Below, piece after piece: positions 9,474-63,868 of a stretch of 64,000 nucleotides of DNA. The position numbers were made by a program, and so were the translations under genes. The notes under the pieces were generated by a model. The model had not been told where the DNA came from. It saw only the letters and a program-made list of their open reading frames with translations, and did no database searches. Within the stretch, counting starts at the first letter, position 1, and each line of letters opens with the position of its first letter. Source of the DNA: an uncultured Flavobacteriales bacterium (lineage in GTDB: Bacteria > Bacteroidota > Bacteroidia > AKYH767-A > 2013-40CM-41-45); contig CAYHHK010000001.1 in NCBI GenBank assembly GCA_964356415.1, forward strand, positions 38,057 to 102,056. The letters run 5' to 3'.

Positions 9474-9505
9474 GCTGTATTAAATTTCATTGAATATCCA
9501 TTTTA

Positions 9506-15593: not shown

Positions 15594-15594
15594 C

Positions 15595-16713: not shown

Positions 16714-16751
16714 TTAATGAATGCTTTCTTACTTTTAAAGTCAGAAAACTT

Positions 16752-16985: not shown

Positions 16986-16987
16986 TC

Positions 16988-17569: not shown

Positions 17570-17580
17570 ACCGGATCTTT

Positions 17581-18312: not shown

Positions 18313-18318
18313 CAGTGT

Positions 18319-45769: not shown

Positions 45770-47772
45770 GTTCCTTTATATTCAACATTTCTGCCAAGAG
45801 AACTAAGCCCAATCAAGGCATCTTTGGAAATAAAGATGTTTTTTAAATCATCCAATTCTGAAATATTAAGATCACAACCATTAATCAGTTTTTCAGAAAC
45901 ATATAGGGCAAGAGGAGCATTCCCTTTGACCTTATTGATAATTCTTTCTGCATCTTCTTTGTCGAGATGATCAAGGCTGTATTCCAGGTGGAGCAGGTGG
46001 TCAAGTGAATTGGCCTCGAAAAATGTTTTTATAGCAAGACATCGCTCTTCAATATTCTTAACGCCCAACGGTATGGAATCAATGGCCATCTCTCCCGATA
46101 AAATTTTAGGAATATCTTCTTTCTGAATGATGCTGTCGATAAGACCGATTTCAGAAGCATGGGTTGCAGTTACTTTTTTTCCTGTATATATCAGATACTT
46201 CGCGAGCCCTTTGCCGACTCTTCTTGCTGTGCGTTTGGCACCACCCAGTCCTGGATAGATTCCGATGCCTGTTTCCGGAAATGCCAGTTTGGCGCCCTGA
46301 ACGGAGAGTATGAGATCGGCACACAATGCAAGTTCTAATCCACCGCCAAGCGCCATTCCATTTAATATTACCACAACTTTCTTTTTTGATTTGTCAATTT
46401 TTTCAAAAAGTTGCTGCCCGAAACTTGTGAAGTCAACAATTCTGTCAACTGAATGATTCTTTATGTTGTTTACGAAGAAATTGATATCTGCTCCTGCTAC
46501 AAAAGCTTTTCCTGTACCTGTGATAAAAATGGTTTTGACGGAGGAATAATTTTCTGCCTGCGAGAATTTCTCATTCAATTGATTTATTACTTCTTCATTC
46601 AAGGCATTCAGTTCTTCAGGTCGGTTTATTGTTATGATGGCTATGTCATCTTTATTTTCCAGAAGGACATAATCCATATGCCAGGAAGAAGAGGATACGA
46701 TGGGGATAGCTTCATTGTAGTGTCTTGCATAATTATTCACCAGACGCTTTACTTCTTCTTCTCCGGTTCTTTTCATTAAATCTACGGGACCATATTTCCA
46801 ACGAAGGCCGATTTTGGCACCCTTGTTTAAATCTACTGCAGAGCATACTCCGTCGTTAAGAATCTGAGTGCAGATAAAAAATACACAACCAAGCAGCCGT
46901 TCATTGATTACTTTGTTTGAGACTGGATTCAGTTCTGCTGAATTTAGCTCCGCAATTTTCCAGTTTTCTTTTTTTGCTGCAAGCTGTTCGAGCATGGGTG
47001 CAATTTTGTAGGATGGTCCAAAAAACTCAAGTGTTCGCTGGGCATGCATTGCAATGGAAACTCCGGTAGCATTCATCAATGCGAAAGGCCCCATTCCGAT
47101 TTTGAAAATTTTCATGCAGGCAGAATCAATACTTTCAATTGTTCCAATGTTTTCAGACAATAGCTTTACGGATTCATTCAGCCATGGAACAAAAAAACGA
47201 TTCACCGCAAATCCATAAACGTCTTTGCAGATAATTGCATCCTTACCCGATAGCATACAGAATGTTTTTGCATTCTCTATTGTTGTTGCTGAAGTTTGGG
47301 TTCCGGGAATAATTTCAACGAGGCGGTTTTTTGCTGCGTGATAAAAATAATGCAGGCCGATAAACCGTTCAGGATGTTTCACTGTGGCAGAAAGTTCAGA
47401 TACCGAAAACGAAGAAGTGTTTGTTGCAATGATCGTTTCTTCAGGTACAATTTCTGAAAGCGCTTTAAACAGATCGCTTTTTGCCTTGAAATCTTCGAAT
47501 ATAGCTTCAATGATAATATTGCAGATTTTTAATTCCTGCAGGTCAGCTGTTCCTTTAAGATTGGATAAGGAGTTAATAACTTCCTCCTCTTTAAAAATAT
47601 TTTTTGCCACCCCTTCGTTCAGCATCGTTTTGATACCGCCCAGGCCTTTCTCTACAAACTTCATTTCCTTGTCGGCAAGAATAACTGTAAAGCCTTCCTG
47701 AACAAATTTTTGAGCCAGGGCAGAGCCCATTGTTCCTGCCCCAATTACGCCGACAGTTTTGATATTTTTCAT
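45766..47772 (-). CDS. bifunctional 3-hydroxyacyl-CoA dehydrogenase (N-terminal) / enoyl-CoA hydratase (C-terminal)
   Basis: 668 aa. The N-terminus carries VGVIGAGTMGSALAQ (HADH NAD site) and the C-terminus has a crotonase fold. Its stop overlaps the mocA start (ATGA). Confidence 0.85.
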   Translation of the reverse strand: MKNIKTVGVIGAGTMGSALAQKFVQEGFTVILADKEMKFVEKGLGGIKTMLNEGVAKNIFKEEEVINSLSNLKGTADLQELKICNIIIEAIFEDFKAKSDLFKALSEIVPEETIIATNTSSFSVSELSATVKHPERFIGLHYFYHAAKNRLVEIIPGTQTSATTIENAKTFCMLSGKDAIICKDVYGFAVNRFFVPWLNESVKLLSENIGTIESIDSACMKIFKIGMGPFALMNATGVSIAMHAQRTLEFFGPSYKIAPMLEQLAAKKENWKIAELNSAELNPVSNKVINERLLGCVFFICTQILNDGVCSAVDLNKGAKIGLRWKYGPVDLMKRTGEEEVKRLVNNYARHYNEAIPIVSSSSWHMDYVLLENKDDIAIITINRPEELNALNEEVINQLNEKFSQAENYSSVKTIFITGTGKAFVAGADINFFVNNIKNHSVDRIVDFTSFGQQLFEKIDKSKKKVVVILNGMALGGGLELALCADLILSVQGAKLAFPETGIGIYPGLGGAKRTARRVGKGLAKYLIYTGKKVTATHASEIGLIDSIIQKEDIPKILSGEMAIDSIPLGVKNIEERCLAIKTFFEANSLDHLLHLEYSLDHLDKEDAERIINKVKGNAPLALYVSEKLINGCDLNISELDDLKNIFISKDALIGLSSLGRNVEYKGT

Positions 47773-48557
47773 TTTGAAAGTGCTTTATTATTTTCCCAGA
47801 CGGGTTTTCTTTTCTCTAAAAATGAATTGATGCCTTCATTCGCGTCATGGGTTTCCATCAGTTGCCTTACATACATGCTTTCAAGTTGCTGAAGAAAATT
47901 GGTTAAGACATGATTGAATTTAGCCCGTGATGCTCTTACTGCAAAGCGGAGTGAGGTGGCGCTTTTTGGAATAATTTGATCTGCAATCCATTTTTCAATA
48001 CCTGTATCCATTGTGGCCTTGTCATCAAACAGTTCATTCACCAATCCTATTTGTCTGGCTTCTTCTGCATGAAAGGTCCTTCCGGTAAGAAGTATTTCTT
48101 CTGCCCTTGCCAAGCCGATTTTTTCAGGAAGGATAACTGAAGCAGGAGGGGGGAAGACCCCAAGTACAATTTCGGGCTGCCCGAATCTGGCTGTTTTGTC
48201 GGCAAAAATAAAATTGCACATAATCGCAAGTTCCATTCCGCCACCAAGACATTGTCCTGAAACTTTTGCCAGAGTTGGGATGGACAGATCTCTTAGCGTA
48301 TAAAACAATGCATGAAAATTCTGAAGCATGGTTGAAGCAAATTCTTTTTTATGTTCTTCTACACTTGCCCCAAAGGAAAAATGCTTCCCTGCGCCTTCAA
48401 GAATAATCAGCTTAACCTGGGAATTAGCACGAAATGTATTTAATACAGACTGCAATTCTTCAATCATCACGTGGTCAAGTACATTTCCTTTGCCGTCATC
48501 AAGAATCACATTGATAACAGTATCATTATGGCTGTAAATAATTTTAACTTTTTCCAT
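47769..48557 (-). CDS. enoyl-CoA hydratase/isomerase (crotonase) family; dienoyl-CoA hydratase (Dch)-like candidate
   Basis: 262 aa with crotonase oxyanion-hole segments (LEGAGKHFSFGAS; CLGGGMELA). Function inferred from size and context with had/oah-like genes. Confidence 0.8.
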   Translation of the reverse strand: MEKVKIIYSHNDTVINVILDDGKGNVLDHVMIEELQSVLNTFRANSQVKLIILEGAGKHFSFGASVEEHKKEFASTMLQNFHALFYTLRDLSIPTLAKVSGQCLGGGMELAIMCNFIFADKTARFGQPEIVLGVFPPPASVILPEKIGLARAEEILLTGRTFHAEEARQIGLVNELFDDKATMDTGIEKWIADQIIPKSATSLRFAVRASRAKFNHVLTNFLQQLESMYVRQLMETHDANEGINSFLEKRKPVWENNKALSK

Positions 48558-48559
48558 TG

Positions 48560-49660
48560 TCAGGTATTAACTTTTTGGTATTGTGGCGAGATCGTTCTGT
48601 GCATTTCATCATTCCATTCATTTCCCTGCGCCAGGAGTTGACGCAGTTTGATGAAATCTACTTCACGGTCCTCTTTTGGTCCGTCATTAAAGGCTTTGAA
48701 TCCAGCCTTCGCTTCTGTCATCATATTTAGTGCAAGCCACTCGCGGCTGCCTTCCTTGTTTTTATCCCAGTGTTCGAGTTTGAATTTGCGAACTTCACTG
48801 ATGGTTTTTGTCATGCAGTTGGGGAATGTGTAAAGTAGTTTGGTGATCAGGTTATTTACCGCCTTGTCCAGCATCGATAAATCTGTTTCGGCAGTTGCTA
48901 AAATCTCTTTTGCTTTTTTCAATTCATCGCCTGATTTGGAAGTTCCGAAAATGACACGTCCGAATTCATTAGTGATTTTATCTGTTACCACCATTGGATT
49001 TGGAGTAAACTGACCATTCACTTTTAGCACAGGAACTATTTCTGTAATAACCCCAAAATAATATGCCTGATGTGCGGTCCACGGTTCACAAAGCGTGAGA
49101 GACATCATTGCCCGCTCAACGCCTACAAAAAGCGGAAGGAAATCAGTGGCGCCTCCAATGGGTGCACTCCCGTGTTTTGGACCTGCCTGGCCGAATCTTG
49201 CCATGTCACTGGCTATGCTGAAGTCGCAGGCCATTCCTATTTCCTGGCCACCGCCAATACGCATTCCGTTAACACGATTGATTACAGGTTTTTCGCATTT
49301 CAATATTGCACTTACCATGTCATTGAACAACCGCATATATTGTGAGTACTCCTGCGGGTTTCCGGCATAATACTCGGCATACTCTTTTGTGTTTCCGCCT
49401 GTACAAAATGCTTTGTCACCAACTGCAGTAAAAACAACTGCAACTACACTCCTGTCGTTTGATGCTTCTCCAAATGCCAGAATGATTTCTTTTACTGCCG
49501 AAGTCGTGTATGAATTATATTGTTTTGGATTATTAAGATAAATCCAGGCATTGTATAACCCATCTATGGGATTGCCATTTTTGTCAAGGCAGTTCTTTTT
49601 CTCAAAAATGATTTCTTTATATACTGCTGTGACGATGTTGTGATTTTTTAGGTTGCTCAT
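48560..49660 (-). CDS. crotonase-superfamily protein with a C-terminal extension; 6-oxocyclohex-1-ene-1-carbonyl-CoA hydrolase (Oah/BamA)-like candidate
   Basis: ~366 aa from the ATG at 49660 (MSNLKNH...). Crotonase core (AFCTGGNTKEY; GMRIGGGQEIGMACDF) plus a ~100 aa C-terminal extension. The longer track ORF would overlap the upstream T9SS gene. Confidence 0.7.
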   Translation of the reverse strand: MSNLKNHNIVTAVYKEIIFEKKNCLDKNGNPIDGLYNAWIYLNNPKQYNSYTTSAVKEIILAFGEASNDRSVVAVVFTAVGDKAFCTGGNTKEYAEYYAGNPQEYSQYMRLFNDMVSAILKCEKPVINRVNGMRIGGGQEIGMACDFSIASDMARFGQAGPKHGSAPIGGATDFLPLFVGVERAMMSLTLCEPWTAHQAYYFGVITEIVPVLKVNGQFTPNPMVVTDKITNEFGRVIFGTSKSGDELKKAKEILATAETDLSMLDKAVNNLITKLLYTFPNCMTKTISEVRKFKLEHWDKNKEGSREWLALNMMTEAKAGFKAFNDGPKEDREVDFIKLRQLLAQGNEWNDEMHRTISPQYQKVNT

Positions 49661-49664
49661 TGTT

Positions 49665-50852
49665 CTAGTTTGTAATTTGTAATTTAAATAAATATTGTTT
49701 TTGGCCTCTCGTTGCTGAAAGTAAATACAACCCCGGTGATAATTCAGAAACATCAATTTGCTTGGAATTCTTTGCTGTCACAACAGGGATTCCTCCAAAT
49801 GAATAAATTTTAATATCTGAGATGCAGTTGTCGGGAGAGTTGATAAATACACAGTTTGTGGATGGGTTCGGATAAATACTTAATTGTTCATTCTGATTTT
49901 CATTTATTGCATCAAGTATGCACCAGGTGATTCCGGAAGATATTGTTCCAAAATTGAAGTCAATGAATGGTGTGGATATTGGCGGGGTTGAGTCGCAAAA
50001 ATCAAAATCTCCCTTCATCCAGCCCCAATTGACCGAGCTGTCGGACACTTGAAAGCTTCCTGTTGCTGTTCCTTTAACGGTATCTGCATTATACCAGCTG
50101 TCGTTCACAATTATTCTTCCGTTGTTATCAAGCGTTGCATTGTGTTGAACTGAATCAGCATTCAGCAGGCTTTTATATAGGATGAAATACCCTGAAGAAA
50201 GGTTCTTAAATATTTCAGTATTCCAGGAACTGTGCAAACAAGTAATGCTATCTGAATTGGTAAAGGTTCCAAGATTTGTAAGATCGGTAAATGTGAGGGT
50301 ATTATTATTTGTGTATTCCCCGGTATTTGTAAATTGATTGTATGTGCAAATCCCATTATTTGTAAAAGTTCCGCCGGTAGTGATACTGTCAATATCCAGG
50401 AAACTGCCGTCGTTGATTATAGCGCCTGTGCTGTATAGACTGTCAATGTTTTGAATGGTTCCTGTATTGGTGAAGTTCACATAGCTCATCAGCGAACGGG
50501 CTGTAAGTGTCCCACTATTCGAAAATGAGCCTGCCTGTACAAACAAGTAGCGTATATCAAGTGTACCATGATTTGTCAGTGTTCCTCCATTTACCAGTAT
50601 GTCCCGTGAAGAATTGTTTTCTATTAGTGATCCTCCTGCATTAATGGTGATTCCTCCGGAAGGGAGATACCAGCCGGTGTCAAGTGCGACAGCGTGGTTG
50701 ATGGTAACTGTAAAGCCGGGCAATGGTATGCAGGTACAACTCCATGTCAACGGGTTCATCCAATTTCCATTTTGAACAGAAGTTGCATTCTGCGAAACAC
50801 CGGAAAAACAAATGGAGAATAAAGCCAGAAGGGTGCTAAGAAATTTGCGCAT
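49665..50852 (-). CDS. secreted beta-helix-like repeat protein with a T9SS C-terminal sorting domain, embedded in the catabolic operon
   Basis: Signal peptide MRKFLSTLLALFSICFSGVSQ, many FTNxGT-type repeats, and C-terminal SIYPNPSTNCVFIN...GLYLLS...LFKLQI. Confidence 0.75.
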   Translation of the reverse strand: MRKFLSTLLALFSICFSGVSQNATSVQNGNWMNPLTWSCTCIPLPGFTVTINHAVALDTGWYLPSGGITINAGGSLIENNSSRDILVNGGTLTNHGTLDIRYLFVQAGSFSNSGTLTARSLMSYVNFTNTGTIQNIDSLYSTGAIINDGSFLDIDSITTGGTFTNNGICTYNQFTNTGEYTNNNTLTFTDLTNLGTFTNSDSITCLHSSWNTEIFKNLSSGYFILYKSLLNADSVQHNATLDNNGRIIVNDSWYNADTVKGTATGSFQVSDSSVNWGWMKGDFDFCDSTPPISTPFIDFNFGTISSGITWCILDAINENQNEQLSIYPNPSTNCVFINSPDNCISDIKIYSFGGIPVVTAKNSKQIDVSELSPGLYLLSATRGQKQYLFKLQITN

Positions 50853-50858
50853 GAAGGT

Positions 50859-51968
50859 TTATTTGAAATCGGGAATAAGAACTGATCGTTTTGAATATTT
50901 ATGCTCAAGAGTATTTCTAAATACTTCATTTATTTTCGACATAGGAAAAGTTTGCACAAACTGTGATATGTTCAGTTTGCCATTGGATATCAGGTCTAAA
51001 ACCTCGGGATATAGTTCTGCCCTGCATCCCCATGTGCCGATGAGTTTGGCGTCATATGCCATCAGGTTGCTTAGCCGGACTTCTGTTTTATCCATTGTGA
51101 AGCCAACAATTGAAAGCGTTGAAGCGTACGTGATAAGGTTAAAAGCCAGATCCTGACCTGCTTTTGTTCCGCTGAATTCAAATATTTTCCATCTGAATTT
51201 TGGCGCATTGATTTCCTTAGCAAGCGCTTTTACTTTTTCTTTGATTGTTTTCTGATCAAGGCTTTTGATATTCAAAACCGCATCTATGCCATTTTCTTTT
51301 GCAGTGGTCAGCTTCGCATCATTGATATCCAGCGCAATTACTTTAGCTCCGAATATTTTTGCGATCAGTGCTCCATAAACTCCTACGCCTCCAACACCGA
51401 TAACAATGGCAAGATCACCCGGTTCCAGTTCTGATTTTTTAATGACCTGATAAGGTGTTGAAATTGCATCAGCAATAACCGCGAGATGTTCGAGTGGATA
51501 TTTATTCAAAACACTTTTTGGAACTTCACATAGAAATTTAGAGGGTACTATTATATGTGAGGAAAATCCTCCCTGGAAATCGTTTCCGGGCATTAATTGA
51601 TTTCTGCAAATATTGCTTCTCCCATTTTTACAGAACTCGCAATCACCACAAGGCAACACGGCAGGAATGATTACTGCTTTATCAAGCCATTTATTATCAC
51701 CGGTAATTACTGTCCCGCTGATCTCATGACCTAACGTCAGAGGAAGTGCATGCTTCGTCTGTACTCCTGCATGCCAAAAGCTGATGTCTGTATGACACAC
51801 ACCGCATCCTGCAATTTTCACAATGACCTCTCCGTCTTTTAATACCGGTAGTGGGTTTTCAATAAGTTGAAATTCCTTGTTGAGTTCAACCATTTGCCAT
51901 TGATGCATTTTTTCGGTTGAAGTAACTTTTGCAGAAGCAAGCTTGATTTTATCAAATGTTTCAGGCAT
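50859..51968 (-). CDS. zinc-dependent medium-chain alcohol dehydrogenase family; 6-hydroxycyclohex-1-ene-1-carbonyl-CoA dehydrogenase (Had/BamQ)-like candidate
   Basis: 369 aa with a catalytic Zn motif (GCGVCHTD), a structural Zn Cys4 (CGDCEFCKNGRSNIC) and a GxGxxG Rossmann motif (IGVGGVGVYG). Confidence 0.8.
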   Translation of the reverse strand: MPETFDKIKLASAKVTSTEKMHQWQMVELNKEFQLIENPLPVLKDGEVIVKIAGCGVCHTDISFWHAGVQTKHALPLTLGHEISGTVITGDNKWLDKAVIIPAVLPCGDCEFCKNGRSNICRNQLMPGNDFQGGFSSHIIVPSKFLCEVPKSVLNKYPLEHLAVIADAISTPYQVIKKSELEPGDLAIVIGVGGVGVYGALIAKIFGAKVIALDINDAKLTTAKENGIDAVLNIKSLDQKTIKEKVKALAKEINAPKFRWKIFEFSGTKAGQDLAFNLITYASTLSIVGFTMDKTEVRLSNLMAYDAKLIGTWGCRAELYPEVLDLISNGKLNISQFVQTFPMSKINEVFRNTLEHKYSKRSVLIPDFK

Positions 51969-51970
51969 AA

Positions 51971-53233
51971 CTATAGGTTTTTGTTTTCAAAAAGGATAGC
52001 TGTTCCCTGTCCGCCGCCAATGCATGCAGATGCGATCCCATATTTTACTTTTCTGCGTATCATTTCTTTAGAGATGGTGAGAGACAACCGCAATCCTGTG
52101 GCGGCAAGCGGATGCCCTATTGCAATGGCTCCTCCGTTTACATTCAGTTTGGTTCTGTCAATTCCCAGTTCCTTTTCGCAACCGATTACCTGCGCCGAGA
52201 ATGCTTCGTTAATTTCAAGCAGACCAATATCGGAGATATTCAATCCAGTCATTTCAAGCAAAAGTCTGATTGCCGGAACCGGGCCCAATCCCATGTATTT
52301 CGGATCGATGCCACAACTTGCGCCTCCGATTATTTTTGATATTGGTTTTAAATTCTTTTGTGAAACAGTTTGCAAATTTGCAATAACTGCAGCGGCTGCG
52401 CCATCAACAATTCCACTGCAATTTCCTGCCGTAAGAACTCCCACTTTGTCAAACACTGTAGGCAGTTTACCCAGCGCATCCAGCGTTGTGGCACGGATAT
52501 GTTCATCAATTGAAAAGGAGCTTGTTCCTTTTGGGAGAAAAGCTTTTCTTGATTTAAGGCCTTCAATATTAAACGTGGCGGACTGCAACGATGCGATTTC
52601 CTCAGAGAAGATTTTATTTGTTGTGGCATCAATTGCTCTTTGAAAAGAGGTCATTGCATATTCATCGCAGTCATTTCTTGAGATATCATATTTCTTTGCA
52701 ACATTTTCGGCTGTATATCCCATCGGATATCCGGCGGCAGTATCGTCCAGAGCTTCCCAAAGCATATCCTTAAATACAGGCCTGCCTAAGGGATATCCCA
52801 TTCTGTTTCCAAAACTCACAGTAGGGGAGAGTGACATATTTTCTGTGCCAACACAGAGAACTGTGTCTGCTTTTCCCAGAGTGATTTGTTCTGCACCTGT
52901 AATAATTGTTTCAAAGCCTGATCCGCAAATCCTTTGCACCATTAATGCCGGAACTTCAGCCGGGATTCCGCTAAAGAGAGATATGTGGCGTGGAAGAAAA
53001 TAGGAGTCTGTTGAACTTTGTCCGATATTGGCTGCAATCACCTGATCAATTTCATTAGGTTTCACTCCTGATTTTTGCAGCGTGGATATTGCGGCAAAAA
53101 TCCCTAAATCGGTAGGAGAGATTTGGGAAAGCGAACCACAGTATTTTCCAAAAGGTGTCCTTGTTCCGTCGACGAGATAAATGTCGTCGAATATTATTCC
53201 TATTCCTTTATTTATATGATGGTAGGCTTTCAC
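51971..53233 (-). CDS. acetyl-CoA C-acyltransferase (degradative thiolase)
   Basis: RTPFGKY, catalytic Cys (VQRICGSGFE), NVNGGAIAIGHPLAATG and C-terminal CIGGGQG. Apparent GTG start at 53233 overlaps the upstream stop (GTGA). Confidence 0.85.
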   Translation of the reverse strand: MKAYHHINKGIGIIFDDIYLVDGTRTPFGKYCGSLSQISPTDLGIFAAISTLQKSGVKPNEIDQVIAANIGQSSTDSYFLPRHISLFSGIPAEVPALMVQRICGSGFETIITGAEQITLGKADTVLCVGTENMSLSPTVSFGNRMGYPLGRPVFKDMLWEALDDTAAGYPMGYTAENVAKKYDISRNDCDEYAMTSFQRAIDATTNKIFSEEIASLQSATFNIEGLKSRKAFLPKGTSSFSIDEHIRATTLDALGKLPTVFDKVGVLTAGNCSGIVDGAAAAVIANLQTVSQKNLKPISKIIGGASCGIDPKYMGLGPVPAIRLLLEMTGLNISDIGLLEINEAFSAQVIGCEKELGIDRTKLNVNGGAIAIGHPLAATGLRLSLTISKEMIRRKVKYGIASACIGGGQGTAILFENKNL

Positions 53234-55131
53234 TGAATTTCAGTTTTATTTGAAACGGAAGTTTCCGTTTTTAGAAAATGCTGTTTGGCAATGAGCGCTG
53301 CTCCCAATGATGCCATGAATTGTGGATTTTCAACCGATTCAACTTCTTGCTTAAGTTTTAATCCAAGAATATCTCTCAGGTATGGATGGTAGGCGATCAC
53401 TCCTCCAATGAGATAAATGGGGATTCCGGACATGATGCGCAGTTTGGCAACCCGGTTAACAATGGAGAGATAGACGCCTTTTGAAATATCTTCAACACTC
53501 ATGCCTTCTATGAGCCATTTCATGATTTCTGTCTTGGCGAATACGGTACAAAAACTGTTCAGCTCAGTTTTATTGTTGCTGCGGGCAGCAAGAAGGCTCA
53601 TTTCACTGATGTTGAGGTCGGCCCGTTCTGCAATTTCAGTAATGAATGACCCTGTTCCTGCAGCACATTTGTCATTGAGAAAGAAATTCTCTACCTCACT
53701 GTTGATGCCGCAATGGATCACCTTGATGTCTTCTCCTCCTATGTCTATAATGTTCTTTGCACCGGGATAAGAAAAGGAGACCCCTTCTGCCGCACAATTA
53801 ATTTCTGTTTTTACAATATCTGCGTCAGGAAAATTTTTGCGTCCATAACCGGTGGCGCAGCTGGCCTTAATATTAAACTCACTACGGATTGCACTCATTA
53901 CATGCCGCACTCCAATCTTATCGCGGTTGAGTGTTTTAAGTGCTAATTTGAATGCCACTTTCGAATTGCTGTCGAGGACGATAAATTTTGTGTAAGATGA
54001 GCCGAGGTCAACACCCAAAAAATATTCTCCTGAACCTGATTTCTCTCCTTTAATGACTAATCCATTCCTAGCTTTTTGGCCACCGGCACCGCTAAATGAC
54101 TTGCCGATCAATGATGGATCAAGTGATTTCATAAATGCACTGTTGCTGCGAGAGGTCATTGCCTTTACCATATTTGTAACAGCAAGATTGATGGGAGTGC
54201 GGATATAGTGCTTGCGGCCGTACTCAACTATTTTTCCATTCATGAAATCAATTTCAGTTTGCCTGTTGTTTATCAGGTCAACTGCAAGTGAAGGGAAATG
54301 GTCCCCTGCTTTTTTAAGGTAACGCAAACATTTGCGAATGAATTCATCTTCAAATATTATTTTTTCCGCTTTTGCTACTTCCAGTGCCTCTTCAATTACC
54401 AGTTCGATAAGTTCTACGGTATCGGGTATCTCCATTGCTTCCTTTATGGTGAGCTTACCGATTCCGCACAGTGCTGACAAGGAGGAATTCAGGATTGTTT
54501 TTTCCCAGATCTGTTTCAGTAATTCAAAGGATGAGATGAATTTGGTATTCAGATTGACTTTGTTCAGCAAGTCACTTATTTGCTGAGCAGCGCCGGCTTT
54601 TGAATCATCGAGGGAAGCGATGTAATTGGGCGGATTAAAAAATGTGACTTTTACAATATTCGGGGCATTCAGGTTGCCGGCAAAGTTGATCACAAGGCGT
54701 AATGTTTTACTTTCACCAATTCCTGAGGCAAGAATCTGCTCGACATCAATGCCGTTTTGTGCACTTACAAAAATGGTTTTATCAAAATTAAGATTCATCA
54801 CCTGTTCGACGAATGCTGATGTTTGATATCCTTTTATACTCGCTATAATGATGTCAGGGTTGAAATTTCGTAATTCGGTGAGGCTGCTGTAGATGTTATC
54901 AACGAAAATATGTTTCTGTATTGCTCCGTCCAGTTTTATTCCTTCTTTCCTGATTAAATTAATTTTAATTTTATCAAAATCGCATACCGCCACATTACAT
55001 CCGGCTTCTTTCAGATGAGCAGAAAGAATGAGCCCGACAGGTCCCAGGCCTACCACAGCTACTTTTTGTTCTGCCTTTTCATTTCCTGAAGGATCTGGAG
55101 TTTGTGATCTGATATTATTTTCTTCACTCAT
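53230..55131 (-). CDS. fusion protein: N-terminal 2-dehydropantoate-2-reductase (ApbA/PanE)-like NAD(P)H oxidoreductase domain :: C-terminal BadF/BadG/BcrA/BcrD (HgdC-type) ATPase/activase domain
   Basis: 633 aa. The N-terminus carries VAVVGLGPVGLILSAHL plus KPR-like motifs (~aa 20-330). The C-terminus has YFLGVDLGSSYTKFIVLD and CAAGTGSFITEIAE, the acetate/sugar-kinase-fold activase signatures. Confidence 0.75.
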   Translation of the reverse strand: MSEENNIRSQTPDPSGNEKAEQKVAVVGLGPVGLILSAHLKEAGCNVAVCDFDKIKINLIRKEGIKLDGAIQKHIFVDNIYSSLTELRNFNPDIIIASIKGYQTSAFVEQVMNLNFDKTIFVSAQNGIDVEQILASGIGESKTLRLVINFAGNLNAPNIVKVTFFNPPNYIASLDDSKAGAAQQISDLLNKVNLNTKFISSFELLKQIWEKTILNSSLSALCGIGKLTIKEAMEIPDTVELIELVIEEALEVAKAEKIIFEDEFIRKCLRYLKKAGDHFPSLAVDLINNRQTEIDFMNGKIVEYGRKHYIRTPINLAVTNMVKAMTSRSNSAFMKSLDPSLIGKSFSGAGGQKARNGLVIKGEKSGSGEYFLGVDLGSSYTKFIVLDSNSKVAFKLALKTLNRDKIGVRHVMSAIRSEFNIKASCATGYGRKNFPDADIVKTEINCAAEGVSFSYPGAKNIIDIGGEDIKVIHCGINSEVENFFLNDKCAAGTGSFITEIAERADLNISEMSLLAARSNNKTELNSFCTVFAKTEIMKWLIEGMSVEDISKGVYLSIVNRVAKLRIMSGIPIYLIGGVIAYHPYLRDILGLKLKQEVESVENPQFMASLGAALIAKQHFLKTETSVSNKTEIQ

Positions 55132-55148
55132 TTTATTTTCTTCAAAGG

Positions 55149-56399
55149 CTATTTAACATTGATCTGTGCTCGCTGCGCTTGTGGATTTCGATGCGAAGCG
55201 TGTTGAATTTGTTCAATAAAGGCTTCAATCTTTGTAATGCTTTGTCCTTCCGAGAAAAATCTCAGGTCACACAAGTCACCTTCAATTACAAGATACGGAA
55301 TCCCTGTTTCGTCTTTTAACCTTTTTGGCAAGCCGAACTTCGCATTTGAATTGTTGAAGCAGGTTTTTGAATCATGAAATATGATGCCATCACAAGAGAA
55401 TTCCTTCAGCCATTTTGCCAACATTTTCATTTTAGCTTTTTCACTCCTGTTGATGAAAATATTTGTATAGGCAAGCGCCGATGATTTAAATGGATCTTTT
55501 TCATCAAACTCATCAAATATCCAGCTGTTGCAATACGTAGATGCAACTACACCGGTGTTGTTCTGAATGAATAAATCAGAAAGCATTCTGTTCTTTCCCC
55601 AGATGGGCATACCATCCCAGAAGATGCGTGATTGTTCTTTTTCAACAACTCCGGTTTTCTTCAAAATATTTTCCTGTAGCTCTTTTAAAAGTGTCTGGTA
55701 ATATTGTTTTGCTGTTTCTGTACCCCGCAACACCACAATGGGCCCCATATGTATGGTTGCATCAAAAAAACTGAGTGGTGCAGGTGATGCTTTAGACGTC
55801 CTTAAAACCTGTTGCCAAAGGAGGGTGGCCTCTTTGCTGAGCAATAAGGTTTCCCTGAAGGAATCAATGTCAAATTGTTTCCCACTGGCTTTTTCACATG
55901 CAGGAATAATATTTTTATGCTGCTGAACACCTGTGGTAATTATTTCCTCTGAAACATCATCCACGTATCTTGGCGGGGTTATACCTGTAATAGGGCAGTT
56001 AAATTCTTTGGCATAAAAGTTAAACCAATCCTGAACTTCCCTGCATTGATTGGTATTGTAAACTATCAGGTCGGGTTTAGGAACGCCTTTCATTCCATAG
56101 TGAGATTGTAAAGGCGTTTTGCCGCTGAGGTAAGAACCGATGTCACTCGTCGTGTATGAGCATATGTGGTTTGAGAAGCCAAGTTTACCCGCTTCAGGAA
56201 TGAAATCGGTAGCGGTACGTGTGGCACCAAGGAGTGCACCGTGATTTTCAGGAAAATATACATTGAACCCAAAAGATCTTAGCAGTTCGGCTGGCCCAAC
56301 GCTTGTACACCATGCGATTTTTCGTTCACCGGTTTCCAATGATCGAAAATATTCGCTCATCACTGCTTTTAATAACTGTGTTGATTTGATTTCGTACAT
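55149..56399 (-). CDS. 2-hydroxyacyl-CoA dehydratase / benzoyl-CoA reductase B/C family subunit (HgdB/BcrC-like), stand-alone
   Basis: HGD-D family features (conserved Cys and C-terminal ...CDLRFF...). The track start at 56471 is TTG. ATGs lie at 56441 and 56399; the latter abuts the ligase stop (TGAtATG) without overlap. Confidence 0.7.
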   Translation of the reverse strand: MYEIKSTQLLKAVMSEYFRSLETGERKIAWCTSVGPAELLRSFGFNVYFPENHGALLGATRTATDFIPEAGKLGFSNHICSYTTSDIGSYLSGKTPLQSHYGMKGVPKPDLIVYNTNQCREVQDWFNFYAKEFNCPITGITPPRYVDDVSEEIITTGVQQHKNIIPACEKASGKQFDIDSFRETLLLSKEATLLWQQVLRTSKASPAPLSFFDATIHMGPIVVLRGTETAKQYYQTLLKELQENILKKTGVVEKEQSRIFWDGMPIWGKNRMLSDLFIQNNTGVVASTYCNSWIFDEFDEKDPFKSSALAYTNIFINRSEKAKMKMLAKWLKEFSCDGIIFHDSKTCFNNSNAKFGLPKRLKDETGIPYLVIEGDLCDLRFFSEGQSITKIEAFIEQIQHASHRNPQAQRAQINVK

Positions 56400-56400
56400 A

Positions 56401-58149
56401 TCAGGTTGCAAATATTCTTCCAACAGTATTTTGAAGTTCATCCAGACGGATGATATAAATTTCTTCTTCAACAGGGTTTTCGTCTCCGTATAAATTTTCC
56501 AGATGCGCTTTGTATGCGCTCACCACATTTCGCGGAGCTACTTTCATGGATGGAGTCAATGTTCCTTTCTCCAGAGAAAGCTCATCATCGATAATCATAG
56601 CAGCTCTTATTTGTGCAAACTTTTGTCCGATGCCACAATTTGCATCATGTAAGCAACCGTGTAAGCATTTGCTGAGTTCATTCAGGTCGCGGGGACAGAA
56701 GCAACCTTCCTCAGGAGAAATGTTGTAGTCAGGATGATTTAAAAGTTTTTTATTTGGGAATAATATGGCAACAGGATAGTCTTGTCCGCTGCCTACTACC
56801 ATGGCGAATGAGATGTAGTGGCATTTCATCTCGATGAGTTTTTCAAGGTCTGACGGAACAACTTTTTCTCCGTTTGACAATTTAAAGATGCGGTCTTTGC
56901 GGGTGATAAGTTTCAGACCATTTTCTGTAATTTCTCCAATATCACCGGTGCAAAACCAGCCATCATCAGTAAATATTCCTGAATTCGCTTCGTCATTTTT
57001 ATAATACCCTTTCATTACGTTGGGACCTTTCACCTGAATTTCTCCGTCATCTGCGAGTCTGATGCTTACTCCGGGCAAAGGACTTCCTACAATACCATGA
57101 TGGCGTTTCTTATTTGGATTTGTGAGCGTACAGCATGGGGAAGTCTCAGTGAGACCCCATCCTTCTATGACTGGTACATGTCTTTTTTCAAATTCGTCGG
57201 AGAGATTTTTAGGAAGCGAAGCCGCTGCAGTGAAAATGAATTTCAATTGGGGATGAAAAAAGAGTTCTTCTGCTTCCTGATCATTTCTTGTAAGATCAAT
57301 AAGTGACTGGTAAACTTTTGGAACGCTGAAAAAGACTGTTGGCTGAATAATTTTCCAGTTTTCCATGAGCACTTTAGGATCTTTTCCATAGCCGGATTCA
57401 AGAGAGATGGTAGCGCCATTGTAAAGTGCCGTGAATAATTCAAAAATACCTCCGAAACTGTGATGCCACGGGAGATAGGAAAGGAAGCGATCAGTGGATG
57501 TTATTTTCAAGACCTTGGATAGCCCTGCTTGTTGTGATAAAATATTTTCATGTGTAAGTTGAACACATTTGGGAATACCCATCGTTCCTGATGTATACAT
57601 GTTCAGACAAATTTCATCAGGTGAAGCATTAGGATCAATTGAAAAACTTGTATCAGAATTAGTTTTTAGCAACTCATCAAAATGGTGCTGATTGTCAAAA
57701 TATTTTTTTTCAATGTTGTCAAAAACAAAAAGATGCCTGACATGAATGTTATTACTGAGTCTGCCTAATTGCAGTTCTCCGGCTACGCTAAGGAATTTTG
57801 CATCAGAATGATTGATGAGTAGTTCTGCCGTTTCCTGATGAAAATAGGCGAAGATGGGAACACTGATTCCACCTGAAACCATCACAGCAAGTTCAAGTTC
57901 AAGCATTTCAAGGCGATTCGGAGAATAAATTACCATCTTATCCCCGGCGATAAAGCCGAATCGCTTGAGGTTAAAAGCAATCTTTAAAATGTCATTGTAG
58001 AAATTGTGCCAGGTGATGCCTTCGAAAATTCCGTTTCTCTTCTCTTGAAAAACAATATTATCCCGAAACGCCCTTACATTGTGATGCAATAACATAGAAA
58101 TGTTAGGAATCATTTTATCCGGCTTAAATTCAGATTCAAGAGTTTTCAT
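56401..58149 (-). CDS. AMP-forming acyl-CoA synthetase/ligase
   Basis: 582 aa with the AMP-binding motif YTSGTMGIPKCV and C-terminal ligase motifs. ATG at 58149. Confidence 0.85.
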   Translation of the reverse strand: MKTLESEFKPDKMIPNISMLLHHNVRAFRDNIVFQEKRNGIFEGITWHNFYNDILKIAFNLKRFGFIAGDKMVIYSPNRLEMLELELAVMVSGGISVPIFAYFHQETAELLINHSDAKFLSVAGELQLGRLSNNIHVRHLFVFDNIEKKYFDNQHHFDELLKTNSDTSFSIDPNASPDEICLNMYTSGTMGIPKCVQLTHENILSQQAGLSKVLKITSTDRFLSYLPWHHSFGGIFELFTALYNGATISLESGYGKDPKVLMENWKIIQPTVFFSVPKVYQSLIDLTRNDQEAEELFFHPQLKFIFTAAASLPKNLSDEFEKRHVPVIEGWGLTETSPCCTLTNPNKKRHHGIVGSPLPGVSIRLADDGEIQVKGPNVMKGYYKNDEANSGIFTDDGWFCTGDIGEITENGLKLITRKDRIFKLSNGEKVVPSDLEKLIEMKCHYISFAMVVGSGQDYPVAILFPNKKLLNHPDYNISPEEGCFCPRDLNELSKCLHGCLHDANCGIGQKFAQIRAAMIIDDELSLEKGTLTPSMKVAPRNVVSAYKAHLENLYGDENPVEEEIYIIRLDELQNTVGRIFAT

Positions 58150-59021: not shown

Positions 59022-59106
59022 TATTGTTCGCTTATCTTCTGTTAGAAAATCATTAGGTGGCTTTTTTGGGAAAGTACAATATTGTGATTAAATTAATATA
59101 TGATAT

Positions 59107-59910
59107 TTATGATGATTGCTGTGTGCTGAAGACGAACTTCTTATTTTTAATTTTATTTTCTTTTGTTTCAATTTTCTCAAGTGGGGCATTTATAATGGAG
59201 TAAACACGGTTTTTTAATTCGTCAACACGGTCTTTGGTATAACCCTTTGTATCAATGGGTGCATGGATAATAATCTCTGACATTCCGGGGCCTGATTTCC
59301 CGGTTAATATTCCTTTGCGCTGAATTCTTTTCCAATTGGTTAAAAAAGTAATTGGTAAAATGGGAACTTGCTTCTGAATTGCCAGAGCAAATGCACCGGC
59401 TTTGAATTCACCCATGAGAGGAGCATTTTTCGATACTGTTCCCTCAGGAAAAATTGCCAAAGGATTTCCATTGGCTAATTCTCTTGACATTCTTTTTAGT
59501 GCTTTTATTGATCCACTGGCGTTTTGCCTGTCAACAAGTATATTCATACCTGAGGTGTAAAATATTTTAAACAGTGGCCATTTTTCAATTTCTTTCTTTC
59601 CGGTAAAAACAAAATACCTGTTAAAAGTAGTGTATAGGCAGGGAATGTCAATGAAAGAGGAATGGTTGGGACAAATAATATATCCTCCCTTTTTTGGTAT
59701 GTTATTTCGGCCTTTTACGTATGGAATAATGCCTCCGAGCAGTAAAAGAATCCATCCGAATATGCGCATTAATTTAAATGCATAAGGGTAGCGATCAGGA
59801 CTGTGCAGGAAGTACGAGAATGCAGGATATAAGATAATTAAAGTTACGGTGAACAGTAAAAAATAGTAAATCCTGTATGCTACTTTGAAGGGAAGCAGAA
59901 TGTACCCCAT
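59107..59910 (-). CDS. lysophospholipid (PlsC-type) acyl-CoA-dependent acyltransferase family membrane protein
   Basis: 267 aa with two N-terminal TM helices, an HxxxxD motif (NHSSFID) and FPEGT. Its start lies 3 nt after the stop of the BcrA-like gene. Confidence 0.75.
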   Translation of the reverse strand: MGYILLPFKVAYRIYYFLLFTVTLIILYPAFSYFLHSPDRYPYAFKLMRIFGWILLLLGGIIPYVKGRNNIPKKGGYIICPNHSSFIDIPCLYTTFNRYFVFTGKKEIEKWPLFKIFYTSGMNILVDRQNASGSIKALKRMSRELANGNPLAIFPEGTVSKNAPLMGEFKAGAFALAIQKQVPILPITFLTNWKRIQRKGILTGKSGPGMSEIIIHAPIDTKGYTKDRVDELKNRVYSIINAPLEKIETKENKIKNKKFVFSTQQSS

Positions 59911-59913
59911 TGG

Positions 59914-61323
59914 TTAGTTCTTTGCGGAAACCGGCAATTCCATGTCAACATTTCTTCTTGCAAACATGGCACCCCCAAGCGCTCCCATAAATATTGAATC
60001 GGTATGAATGTTTATTTTGATGTTATCGCCATAGTTTTCTTTTACCAGTTGCGTGAGATATTTAATTACTGCCTGGTTGCGTGCAACACCTCCTGTGAAA
60101 GTGAATTCATTGTAAACGCCTCCTGAACGCGCGATGAGAGACATGGCCCGCATAATTATGGCTTTGTGCAAGCCGCCAAGAATGTCAGCTCGCTTTTCAC
60201 CAAGATTGGTCAGTTCGCGCAATTCAGCTCCAGCAAATACTGTACATGTGGAGCAAATAGTTACTTCTTTCTCTGCCTCTAATGCCAGGGGACCTAATTC
60301 ATTTAATGAAATGCTCATTTCATCAGCAATATAACCGAGGTAGCGTCCACATCCGGCTGCACATCGATCATTCATTTGAAAACTGGTTACAAGACCGTAT
60401 TTATCCACTTGTATCGCTTTGGTGTCTTGTCCGCCGATGTCAAGTACTGTTCTTGTATCAGGAAAAACAGCATGGGCTCCAAATGCATGACATAAAATCT
60501 CTGAGCGAATGCATTCTTGCGGAAACGGAAGCAAGGCGCGACCATATCCTGTCCCTGTCATATTTTCTATTTCAAATTCAATATCTGCAATTTCGTCAAT
60601 GTGTTCACGTAGAGATTCGGATACGTGGTCAAAATTTCCTTTAAGTAAATTCAGTTCAGCATCAAAATTCACACTTGTATTTTCCGCGGATGTGTCAGGA
60701 AGGTTTTTGTATTTTTCTTTAAGCTCATCCATTGCTTTGTGCACAAGCTCTTTGAAGTCAAATTGAACTCGTTGGTTTTCTGATGGACTTATGCTCTTGT
60801 CCCAGACTGTCATCAATGGCTCAAAAAGTGAAATGTCGAGTTTGTTTACTTCCTCGTTGTAACGTTCAGAAACGGTATCGCGAAAGAATTGATTTTTTGC
60901 TCCAAGGTTATTATACAAATATTCATGTTTGATTTTTGGCTTAAAGGCCCTGCGTATATTCCTCAGGTGATTCAATATTTCTTCCCTCTTTTTTTCATCA
61001 GTAAAGAAGACATGACAGGTTTTTACAAGTTCATCTCCAAGTTTATCTAAACGAATTCTGAATTGCTCGTACTGAAATACACTTTCAAGGTCAGTAATAT
61101 ATTTGTTGTATTCAGGCTTTGCTTTTAGTTCTGCTTCCAGTTTTTTCTTGAGTACAGAAAATCGTGCATTGTAAATTGCTTCATCCTTCGCAATGTCAGC
61201 TGCCACTGAATAGTTTGCACGGGTATTTGTGATACCACGGCCTATGATTTCATCTTGTTCATTAATGATGACTGCTTTTGATGTTGTTGAGCCAAGGTCA
61301 ACGCCGAGATAATACTTGTTCAT
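59914..61323 (-). CDS. BadF/BadG/BcrA/BcrD-family ATPase, long form with an internal insertion (BcrA/BadF-like subunit)
   Basis: 469 aa. The N-terminal YYLGVDLGSTTSKAVII and C-terminal CAAGCGRYLGYIADE are separated by a ~200-aa helical insert, as in the larger ATP-binding BCR subunit. Confidence 0.8.
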   Translation of the reverse strand: MNKYYLGVDLGSTTSKAVIINEQDEIIGRGITNTRANYSVAADIAKDEAIYNARFSVLKKKLEAELKAKPEYNKYITDLESVFQYEQFRIRLDKLGDELVKTCHVFFTDEKKREEILNHLRNIRRAFKPKIKHEYLYNNLGAKNQFFRDTVSERYNEEVNKLDISLFEPLMTVWDKSISPSENQRVQFDFKELVHKAMDELKEKYKNLPDTSAENTSVNFDAELNLLKGNFDHVSESLREHIDEIADIEFEIENMTGTGYGRALLPFPQECIRSEILCHAFGAHAVFPDTRTVLDIGGQDTKAIQVDKYGLVTSFQMNDRCAAGCGRYLGYIADEMSISLNELGPLALEAEKEVTICSTCTVFAGAELRELTNLGEKRADILGGLHKAIIMRAMSLIARSGGVYNEFTFTGGVARNQAVIKYLTQLVKENYGDNIKINIHTDSIFMGALGGAMFARRNVDMELPVSAKN

Positions 61324-61347: not shown

Positions 61348-62649
61348 TTAAGCCGAAACTACTCCCTGTGACATAATTATTTTTCGTTGCTCCAGCATCT
61401 GAAAATATGATTCAAGCCGGTTCTTAATATTTGCATATGAAAAATAGCGGGGATCAACCAAATCACTTTCGATGAAACCAACAGGAACACCACATCTTTG
61501 TTCGATTTCCCGCATCATTAATAATTGTCCTGCTGAAAATGAATTGCAGCTTTTGATTGAGTTGATTAAAAATCCGTCCGCTTTATACTCTTTAATATAG
61601 TGTTCAATTAAATCTACCCGTTGTGGCAAATTCAGGTTGGTGTAGCAGCCCATACAATATTTTGCAAGGCTCTCAAGGGGATTTTCAGGATCATGACGGA
61701 AACCTCGGTCATAAACACCACCGACTTTTGTATAAGTCGATGCGACAATCACAGCACCCATGTCATAAAATATTTTCCAAAACTCACGGAAGTTTGTCCA
61801 GTTTGGGGGACCTTCAACTACAAGTCGATATTTTTCTTCTTTTAATTCTCCTTCCGGGTTAATCGGAAGTAATCCCTTTTTAAGACGGTCATCCACTTCG
61901 TTGTATAATTCCTGATAGTATTCAAGTGCAATATCAGTTCCCCTGAACGCTGTGTTTAGAGGGCCCATATAGTACACGCCGGCGAAATATGAATCTATTG
62001 GCGAGGGTTTGTTTTTTGCGGATTCAAGAACCTTTACCCACAAATCTTCTGACTTGGCTGAGTTCTCAAGCATTTTTGAAAGGCGGTCGTAATCCAGTTT
62101 CTTTCCAGCAACTTTTTCCATCTTCGGAATCACTTCTTCTTTCAGCTGCTTCACCATATAGGTGACTTGATCGTCTGTTATTTTTCCATCTTCCTGATAT
62201 GGCGTATGCAGCATTGCAATCTCAACTCCGGGATATAATTTTTCGAGATTTTCAAACCACTTCATGAATGTGAAGCAACCAGTGTAGCTTAATAATAATA
62301 AGTCTGGCTCAGGAAGTTTTTCACCGGTAGGGCCAATATTGCCGTTGAGCATCATGCCAATGTCACACTTAACATAGGTGCATACGTCTTCGCTGAATCC
62401 GATTTTTTCAGCATCTTTAATGTATGAACCGGATTTTTTTCTCATGCCGGACTGAAGTGCATTTATTTCAGGGTAAACAGGCAGCATATCCAGTGCGAGA
62501 ATCAGTTCTGTTATGTTTCCCGGCACAAATGTGTACACGACCTTTTTACCATTCTCTTTTGCAGTACTAAGTTCAGTAAAAAGATTGCCAAGCATCTCTT
62601 TCTGAATGACCATGCTTTTTTCCTTTATTGCTTCCTTTGGATTGCTCAT
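61348..62649 (-). CDS. benzoyl-CoA reductase B / 2-hydroxyacyl-CoA dehydratase alpha-type subunit (BcrB/BadE/HgdA-like)
   Basis: 433 aa with HGD-D family features (GKKVVYTFVPGNITELILALDMLPVYPE) and conserved Cys. Confidence 0.8.
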   Translation of the reverse strand: MSNPKEAIKEKSMVIQKEMLGNLFTELSTAKENGKKVVYTFVPGNITELILALDMLPVYPEINALQSGMRKKSGSYIKDAEKIGFSEDVCTYVKCDIGMMLNGNIGPTGEKLPEPDLLLLSYTGCFTFMKWFENLEKLYPGVEIAMLHTPYQEDGKITDDQVTYMVKQLKEEVIPKMEKVAGKKLDYDRLSKMLENSAKSEDLWVKVLESAKNKPSPIDSYFAGVYYMGPLNTAFRGTDIALEYYQELYNEVDDRLKKGLLPINPEGELKEEKYRLVVEGPPNWTNFREFWKIFYDMGAVIVASTYTKVGGVYDRGFRHDPENPLESLAKYCMGCYTNLNLPQRVDLIEHYIKEYKADGFLINSIKSCNSFSAGQLLMMREIEQRCGVPVGFIESDLVDPRYFSYANIKNRLESYFQMLEQRKIIMSQGVVSA

Positions 62650-62704: not shown

Positions 62705-63868
62705 TTATGCCCATAATTTTATTGAATCCGAAAACGTACCGGCCTGTTCTTTTATTACCTTGAATTGTCCCGTGTTTTCATGAAACTGGAAGTTGATATG
62801 ATTAAGACCTGCTTTATCACATGCCTTTTGTAGTTCCGGGCGATCAAGCAATGCCGGGTCACAAAAACTTGCTGCACAGAAAATGACTCCGTCTGCTTTT
62901 CTACTTATTGCTAAATCAACCAGGCGTTTCCCTTTGGGATTGCCAACGTCATATATTGCAGACGAGAAAACACTTTTTTGAAGAAAGGCATTGACTATTT
63001 CATTGACCGGATTTTCGGTAGTCGAATCAATATCACCCTGAATCCACCTTGATCCGAGCATAAAATCATCATCAATGATGTAGCATCCTGACATTTCAAT
63101 GGATTTAATTAATCCGATTGGTGGTTGTTCACAGAATGAACCTGAAATGATTACTCTTATATTATCCATTGGCTCACCTGATTCATGACGAATCAGGTTA
63201 AGCACTTCTTCAAGAACTTCATTGTGTCTTTCAACCGGAATTACCATTCCTGCACGAACGATATGGTAAACGTCAACAGCAGATAAACGCCATGGATATT
63301 CCTGGCGGATATCATAGATTGCTTCAATCAGTTTCCGGTTTCTGTTGTAGAGAGAAATGGAATGATTGAGTTTTTCGGGAGTAACTTTCACTCCATTTAG
63401 TTGGAACATATCATCCATTACTGTTTCAATCAGCTCGCGATAAAAAACCCCGCCGATGAGTGCATCAAAATTCTGCGGGTAATCAAAGTAGCGTGTAAAT
63501 TTCCCCTTCTTCACAATTTTAAACATTCCGGAAAGATTTCGTACGCAATCGCAGATTGCAGGAAAAAGAAAGCCATCAAAGTCATCAAGATTATGATCGA
63601 GCGCCATTTCTATGATGCCGCGGGGCAAATGACATATGTAGGATTGGTAATAGGCATCTCCTTTAATGATTTGTTTGCGGTCTCCAACTCCCATAATTCC
63701 TACCGGTAATGCATTTGCTGCATGAATGATTTCGCGCGGAACATAAATAGGAAGGTAACCAACAAGCAAGCGGTTAGGAGATTCCTTCTTCCATTCCTTT
63801 GCTGATGAAAAATTCAGGTCGAAAGCCAGTTCGCGACACATTTTCGTTATTTCTTCAATTGACCCCAT
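62705..63868 (-). CDS. benzoyl-CoA reductase C / 2-hydroxyacyl-CoA dehydratase beta-type subunit (BcrC/BadD/HgdB-like)
   Basis: 387 aa with HGD-D family features and conserved Cys (AICDCVRNL; GVIFCAASFCDP). It is the first gene of the cluster. Confidence 0.8.
   Translation of the reverse strand: MGSIEEITKMCRELAFDLNFSSAKEWKKESPNRLLVGYLPIYVPREIIHAANALPVGIMGVGDRKQIIKGDAYYQSYICHLPRGIIEMALDHNLDDFDGFLFPAICDCVRNLSGMFKIVKKGKFTRYFDYPQNFDALIGGVFYRELIETVMDDMFQLNGVKVTPEKLNHSISLYNRNRKLIEAIYDIRQEYPWRLSAVDVYHIVRAGMVIPVERHNEVLEEVLNLIRHESGEPMDNIRVIISGSFCEQPPIGLIKSIEMSGCYIIDDDFMLGSRWIQGDIDSTTENPVNEIVNAFLQKSVFSSAIYDVGNPKGKRLVDLAISRKADGVIFCAASFCDPALLDRPELQKACDKAGLNHINFQFHENTGQFKVIKEQAGTFSDSIKLWA

Follow-up and report, generated by a model that had tools for sequence, protein, structure and literature searches.

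A PlsC-type acyltransferase gene between bcrA and bcrD of a Bacteroidota-type operon: probably an ordinary lipid enzyme at a variable junction

A gene for a PlsC-type acyltransferase lies between bcrA and bcrD in a benzoyl-CoA reductase operon of Bacteroidota type. The gene probably encodes an ordinary, functional lipid acyltransferase that occupies a variable junction of the operon and is co-transcribed with it by virtue of position. Judged by sequence, the protein is a member of a widespread Bacteroidota lipid-acyltransferase family that is often paired with glsA, and the genes around it make up a genuine pathway of class I benzoyl-CoA reductase. Among the bcr operons of Bacteroidota the arrangement is a curiosity; it does not add a new component to benzoyl-CoA reductase.

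The acyltransferase gene and its operon

The bcr genes and the acyltransferase gene follow one another on the minus strand of the window (the whole 64-kb stretch of DNA that was analysed) and are listed here in the direction of transcription; loci compared with the window are cited by their L or P numbers.

62705–63868, minus strand: BcrC-type subunit, 387 aa, first gene of the operon (TIGR02263, 455.8 against a cutoff of 421.15)
61348–62649, minus strand: BcrB-type subunit, 433 aa (TIGR02260, 692 against a cutoff of 486.55)
59914–61323, minus strand: BcrA-like ATPase subunit of class I benzoyl-CoA reductase, 469 aa (PF01869; TIGR02259)
59911–59913, minus strand: bcrA–plsC spacer, 3 nt, between the bcrA stop codon TAA (59914–59916) and the plsC start codon ATG (59908–59910)
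59107–59910, minus strand: PlsC-like LPLAT acyltransferase, 267 aa, ATG start
59022–59106, minus strand: plsC–bcrD spacer, 85 nt, partly conserved with L005
58161–59021, minus strand: BcrD-like ATPase subunit (TIGR02261, 317 against a cutoff of 312.85, equivalog reached)
47769–58149, minus strand: rest of the catabolic operon, coding for an AMP-ligase, a single HGD-D subunit, an ApbA–activase fusion, thiolase, Had, a T9SS-tailed protein, Oah and Dch

The BcrA-like protein scores 439 bits against TIGR02259, under the cutoff of 578, yet this model is the best match for the gene, and the protein is 79–90% identical to BcrA of Bacteroidota-type loci. Had and Oah both score above equivalog cutoffs; Dch is the top match for its gene. 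Past Dch lie a 3HCDH–ECH fusion, MobA/XdhC and an SDR gene. Further along the window are genes for cytochromes c, narGHI with accessory genes and two narK-like MFS transporter genes, followed by Moco biosynthesis genes, a 4-hydroxybenzoyl-CoA-reductase-like pair, a TrpB-like gene and hydantoinase A/B. Nearly all genes of the window share the minus strand and make up one anaerobic island. Several of the encoded proteins carry a Por_Secre_tail, and the organism is therefore a Bacteroidota-like denitrifier.

Other features of the island can be described in their own right. Directly after bcrD stands a second module of the BCR/HAD family (53230–58149, minus strand), composed of an AMP-forming ligase of 582 aa, a single HGD-D subunit of 440 aa and a 633-aa protein that joins a ketopantoate-reductase-like ApbA domain to an activase ATPase. 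The same trio follows bcrCBAD in L087, L093, L094, L041 and L171, occurs at 43–54% identity in L100, a locus of another phylum, and has partial matches in L163 and L110; we know of no described function for it. The 4-hydroxybenzoyl-CoA-reductase-like enzyme (8523–12298, minus strand) consists of a [2Fe-2S] gamma subunit fused to the Mo-binding alpha subunit (930 aa), followed by an FAD subunit (316 aa). Both score under their equivalog cutoffs (828 against 995 and 200 against 405 bits), and the fused gamma–alpha form is also present in L006, L007, L026 and L093. Adjoining these genes are hydantoinase A/B and a TrpB-like PLP enzyme (3107–8464, minus strand). The hydantoinase genes match caprolactamase best and acetophenone carboxylase subunits next, all far below cutoff, and may encode an ATP-dependent carboxylase or lactamase that acts on an aromatic compound.

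The position of plsC inside the reductase operon, three nucleotides after the preceding gene, is as the earlier note had reported it, and a scan of the bcrA–plsC–bcrD stretch found no terminator-like hairpin on the minus strand. Co-transcription of plsC with bcrCBA, as a consequence of its position, is suggested by the tight spacing and the missing terminator. Sigma-70-like promoter matches lie upstream of bcrC (63929–63874, minus strand), in a consensus scan that is uninformative for Bacteroidota and does not cover their promoters. Alignment with L005 indicates that the true start of bcrD is likely the ATG at 59000, which would extend the plsC–bcrD gap to 106 nt. The bcrD start also varies among public gene calls, which give 272, 279 or 286 aa.

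The plsC product matches PF01553 (Acyltransferase) over residues 65–189 with an E-value of 2.4e-28 and 99 bits against a cutoff of 23. Its two signature motifs were read directly from the sequence, NHSSFID at residues 82–88 (window 59647–59667) and FPEGT at residues 154–158 (59437–59451), and the earlier identification of a membrane LPLAT/PlsC-type acyltransferase by these motifs is borne out. In motif I (N82-H83-x4-D88), H83 and D88 are invariant across 20 homologues, which also keep motif II (V126-D127-R128), motif IV (P183/P186), K105 and P112. Motif III, F154-P-E-G-T158, is followed by V159 (codon 59434–59436) in place of Arg, giving FPEGTV(159)SK; the family consensus here is EGTISK, with Ile or Val at the Arg position in most members. 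Two hydrophobic segments at the N-terminus (about residues 13–31 and 43–61 by hydropathy) are the normal membrane motif of PlsC, and a C-terminal tail of about 20 aa is common only to the window protein and its L005 relative.

Models of narrower scope were matched to different degrees. The subfamily-domain model TIGR00530 (AGP_acyltrn) is barely passed, at 105.6 against 102.95, and the E. coli PlsC equivalog NF011593 gives 58 against a cutoff of 501. Scores against the OlsA models NF052553 and NF052552 are 51 and 42 bits, below their cutoffs of 300, and GlsA (NF053697) is not among the matches of the window protein at E ≤ 1e-5.

The N-terminus (MxYILLPFRVIYKIYY) is kept in 19 homologues, and because of this conservation the 267-aa start is preferred over the 220-aa model of public assemblies, which was rejected. 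The public call (L001 10001–10663) begins at an internal Met and lacks the conserved N-terminal helix. A pseudogene or chance reading frame was ruled out by the intact motifs, the conserved N-terminus and a dN/dS of 0.086. GC content is uninformative (36.7% in plsC, 40% in the neighbouring genes).

Distribution of the family and occupancy of the junction

A database search with the window protein returned 426 relatives, about 55–64% identical save for three near-identical ones. They are annotated as 1-acyl-sn-glycerol-3-phosphate or lysophospholipid acyltransferases and come from Bacteroidia MAGs. A pattern-based scan of one genome per species, from which the best 80 of 109 hits were kept, yielded 80 loci in 80 assemblies at 49–62% identity, and each genome carries one copy of the family among these best 80 of 109 hits. 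The sample leans towards relatives of the window organism, and bcr-bearing genomes may have a second paralogue beyond these hits. When all open reading frames of the 80 loci were clustered, the neighbourhoods proved mostly unrelated to one another. About 58 of the 80 loci lie in unrelated contexts, as do P0006 and P0014, which are among the closest homologues (about 60% identical) and are found amid AraC regulators, pirins, patatin and porin genes.

The commonest neighbour, present at 14 loci, is a gene of 245–286 aa directly upstream of plsC. Its product is a PF19576 acyltransferase that reaches the GlsA equivalog NF053697 with 371 bits against a cutoff of 260, and GlsA is lyso-glycine lipid O-acyltransferase. 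The upstream neighbour being a GlsA equivalog, glsA–plsC is a membrane-lipid gene pair, and it is also found where no bcr genes lie within 10 kb. The whole 64-kb window is devoid of glsA, and plsC alone follows bcrA.

Occupancy of the bcrA–bcrD junction was compared in two sets of loci, one found through PlsC itself and the other, unbiased, through a BcrA search of metagenome contigs. In the PlsC-found set the window-type order bcrA–plsC–bcrD is seen in L001–L005, bcrCBA–glsA–plsC…bcrD in L007, L019, L022, L025, L027, L036, L041 and L171, and bcrCBA–plsC…bcrD without glsA in L026; the glsA–plsC pair occupies the junction in at least nine species or lineages other than that of the window. MAGs with bcrA–(glsA)–plsC include CAINDA01, JAHEXZ01 and CAIQQJ01. 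Several of these loci have plsC and bcrD 1–8 kb apart with opposite-strand genes between them, repeatedly a LuxR-type response regulator, and bcrD must therefore have its own promoter there.

The BcrA search returned 11 Bacteroidota-type loci with BcrA 72–90% identical to that of the window. Ten of them show the region downstream of bcrA, and plsC is present in none of these ten. In five (L087, L089, L092, L094 and L097) bcrA stands next to bcrD. Outside the window lineage (L001–L005), L087 is the closest relative, with BcrA 89–90% identical, gene order colinear through dch and a bcrA–bcrD gap of about 13 nt; the rest of the catabolic operon (47769–58149) is colinear with both L087 and L094, which lack plsC. 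A search by tblastn and the family HMM found no PlsC-like open reading frame in any of the 69 non-Bacteroidota BcrA loci, and the PlsC-family HMM had no match in the whole 870 kb of BcrA-found loci; in the control set it recovered all 86 PlsCs and 10 of 14 GlsA copies. Full-text literature searches turned up no account of an acyltransferase within a bcr operon. The earlier note's remark that bcr operons elsewhere are without such a gene agrees with these results. The comparison of synteny that it had proposed gave a divided answer, as the insertion recurs in loci found through PlsC and is absent from all ten found through BcrA, so that conserved presence across orthologous bcr operons was not found. 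The BcrA tree intermingles junctions that carry plsC with junctions that do not; the plsC-less L088 is nested among plsC-bearing loci. By this comparison, benzoyl-CoA reductase does not need plsC.

The junction accommodates other genes as well. A saccharopine-dehydrogenase-family gene recurs there with or without glsA–plsC (L041 10931–12076; L088 1401–2561; L093 11672–12796; L091 5140–5565; L038 1922–2910), and in the BcrA-found L088, L093 and L091 it stands alone. An opposite-strand LuxR-type regulator is found in L007, L025, L026 and L171 and a Crp-type regulator in L090, and between plsC and bcrD lie T9SS proteins in L007 and a TonB receptor with CobN in L036. The junction of L095 (1422–4970) is filled by genes for an HNH endonuclease and a Dam-type N6-adenine methyltransferase plus two unknown genes on the opposite strand, and looks like a mobile restriction-modification-like insert. 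Elsewhere in the operon, a T9SS-sorted secreted-protein gene lies between had and oah of the window (49665–50852, minus strand), and relatives have T9SS-tailed genes between bcrB and bcrA (L022 6551–7471; L026 7197–8315; L027). Passenger genes are evidently tolerated in Bacteroidota-type bcr operons.

Between the window and L005, plsC shows a dN/dS of 0.086 at a dS of about 1.0, compared with 0.011 at 1.1 for bcrA and 0.042 at 0.82 for bcrD. Given the similar dS values and the low dN/dS, plsC has been resident under purifying selection since the window and L005 split. PlsC identity falls roughly in step with BcrA identity across loci: BcrA identities of 90–94% correspond to 64–84% in PlsC, 86–88% to 56–69%, and 79–81% to 56–63%. 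This pattern is consistent with an old insertion that was later lost differentially, glsA being the part lost from the window. It suggests long co-residence at the junction, in which selection could have had a part. Independent capture of the window PlsC, which comes without glsA and is only 56–62% identical to the others, is not favoured, as its divergence relative to BcrA scales much as in other pairs. A neighbour-joining tree with 200 bootstraps interleaves operon-linked and unlinked PlsCs and never recovers the linked ones as a separate clade (0 of 200), which is weak evidence as the deep nodes are unresolved.

At least five different arrangements place the family within aromatic or denitrification clusters, namely bcrA–(glsA)–plsC, HBCR–plsC–fdx–korAB, HBCR…plsC, narK–plsC–Moco genes and crp–glsA–plsC–nos, and the linkage is not random. 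The gene lies between 4-hydroxybenzoyl-CoA-reductase-like genes and ferredoxin–korAB in L006, L008 and L017, and near 4-hydroxybenzoyl-CoA-reductase-like genes in L064 and L073. In L011 it stands between narGHI/narK and hemerythrin/porin/Moco genes, with NarG 90% and NarH 95% identical to those of the window. This recurrence could represent the inherited synteny of one internally shuffled chromosomal region, or it could result from selection for anaerobic co-expression, in a sample biased to relatives of the window. The bcr-less loci L015, L020, L030 and L033 (about 8000–18500 in each) carry glsA–plsC upstream of a cytochrome c–nosZ–nosL–nosD–nosF–nosY cluster. Moco genes and a Crp/Fnr-type regulator lie directly upstream of glsA–plsC in L020, L030 and L033, and norCB-like genes are found upstream in L015 and L020.

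Explanations of the gene's placement

Under the reading that we prefer, the plsC product would be a membrane-embedded PlsC/LPLAT enzyme making membrane lipid. Going by what is known of the family, His83 and Asp88 of the HX4D motif would move an acyl chain onto a lyso-lipid acceptor, probably lysophosphatidate and possibly another lyso-lipid, with acyl-ACP or acyl-CoA as the donor. The gene would be this lineage's copy of a Bacteroidota family usually adjacent to glsA, and its product would have no catalytic or structural part in benzoyl-CoA reduction. It would stand between bcrA and bcrD because that junction in the Bacteroidota-type operon carries a variable insert, which appears as glsA–plsC in several lineages, as unrelated cargo in others and as nothing in many, and which in the window lineage would have shrunk to plsC alone. 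As outcomes that would speak against its own proposals the earlier note had named absence of the gene from all orthologous loci together with a promoter of its own, or an ordinary PlsC essential for phospholipid synthesis and located here by chance, and this largely describes what was found: the gene is missing from all ten informative Bacteroidota-type loci found through BcrA, and the family is widespread, lies mostly in unrelated contexts and, in the best 80 of 109 hits, has a single copy in each genome. The word chance does not quite fit, as the same junction recurs with glsA–plsC.

The proposals in question gave the protein a part in the aromatic pathway. One was the transfer of an aroyl or alicyclic acyl group, such as benzoyl or cyclohexanoyl, from CoA to a lipid or other acceptor. 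Only the position in the operon, beside an AMP-forming ligase and CoA-ester enzymes, points that way; the protein is an ordinary family member with the same motifs as its relatives, most of which belong to genomes or loci without aromatic genes, plsC is missing from most bcr loci, and the alignment reveals no substitution specific to operon-linked copies. We consider such a transfer very improbable. Anchoring of the soluble BcrABCD complex to the membrane, for which one might cite the two N-terminal hydrophobic helices and a gene position between two ATPase subunit genes, is slightly less credible still. The helices are those of PlsC enzymes in general, bcrA is directly joined to bcrD, and such a gene is lacking, in L087 and in all operons of other phyla, and in several relatives plsC and bcrD lie 4–8 kb apart with opposite-strand genes between them. 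Neither proposal gained support from the comparison. A partnership of another kind would follow if the neighbouring genes were themselves lipid-modifying: the plasmalogen synthase PlsA/PlsR of anaerobes belongs to the BCR/HAD family (PMC10191378), which gives that family a link to lipid metabolism in principle and would make the acyltransferase a genuine pathway partner. This identity is effectively refuted by the equivalog cutoffs that BcrB, BcrC and BcrD reach as benzoyl-CoA reductase subunits, by those reached by Had and Oah along with the best match of Dch, and by the colinearity of the four-subunit operon with bcrCBAD-had-oah-dch of other phyla.

A more serious competitor, possible in our judgement though doubtful, is functional co-regulation. 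Here plsC, ancestrally together with glsA, would belong to the anaerobic regulon of a denitrifying Bacteroidota clade; lipid acylation would be remodelled under nitrate respiration or during growth on membrane-active aromatic acids, and the placement would have been selected for co-expression and not for ring reduction. The recurrence of plsC in the nar/nos/Moco/HBCR/bcr supercluster, in at least five arrangements and in lineages whose PlsCs are only 52–62% identical, agrees with this explanation, as do the Crp/Fnr-type regulator directly upstream of glsA–plsC in L020, L030 and L033, the purifying selection on plsC in place and the parallel divergence of PlsC and BcrA. It sits less easily with the unrelated contexts of about 58 of the 80 loci and of P0006 and P0014, with the ten Bacteroidota-type bcr loci that lack plsC, and with the single copy detected per genome in the best 80 of 109 hits, as would suit a constitutive gene; the bias of the 80-locus sample towards relatives of the window organism also counts against it. 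More speculative, and in our view unlikely, is the version in which selection has made the Arg-less PlsC-like enzyme, ancestrally paired with GlsA, part of the anaerobic regulon in a clade of denitrifying, aromatic-degrading Bacteroidota, where it would remodel membrane lipids, possibly aminolipids and not phosphatidate, on a switch to nitrate respiration or to growth on benzoate. This would explain the persistence of the gene in nar/nos/Moco/HBCR/bcr clusters through rearrangements.

If plsC is an ordinary lipid acyltransferase gene, as we favour, its placement is a caution that tight spacing in a catabolic operon does not amount to membership in the pathway. Bacteroidota-type bcr operons would then be unusually permissive, admitting lipid genes, T9SS cargo, regulators and a restriction-modification-like pair. 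If co-regulation is the true explanation, membrane-lipid acylation would be linked to anaerobic respiration or aromatic catabolism in Bacteroidota, a result of modest importance. The understanding of the benzoyl-CoA reductase mechanism is unchanged under either reading.

Comparison with known systems

The window protein aligns over residues 14–250 (E 8.5e-24) with PlsC of Thermotoga maritima (PDB 5KYM), the canonical bacterial lysophosphatidate acyltransferase. The two have in common the pair of N-terminal hydrophobic helices, HX4D, the Arg of motif II, EGT, the Pro of motif IV and K105/P112. They differ at the EGTR-motif Arg (R159 of the T. maritima enzyme), which is reported to bind the phosphate of LPA (PMC6688108) and is replaced by Val in the window protein and by Ile or Val in most of its family. 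The window protein thus lacks the EGTR Arg of a canonical lysophosphatidate acyltransferase and retains K105, the second proposed phosphate ligand, a combination that hints at a non-canonical acceptor. The acceptor is uncertain because the Arg is replaced and the E. coli PlsC equivalog score is far below cutoff; from the residues and scores, canonical LPA acyltransferase activity is not assured, and the acceptor may be something other than lysophosphatidate.

The second system for comparison is the glsA–plsC pair of Bacteroidota. Of the 86 PlsC loci compared, 14 have the plsC homologue immediately downstream of a GlsA-equivalog gene, as does L171 in addition, and these pairs include eight loci at the bcrA–bcrD junction.

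The surroundings of the gene match the Thauera-type bcrCBAD-had-oah-dch operon in gene order and equivalog scores. In the canonical operon bcrA and bcrD are adjacent, as they also are in the 69 other-phylum loci (wherever bcrD is visible) and in five Bacteroidota-type loci, all of them without an acyltransferase, whereas in the window plsC stands between the two genes, and the acyltransferase lies outside the known system.
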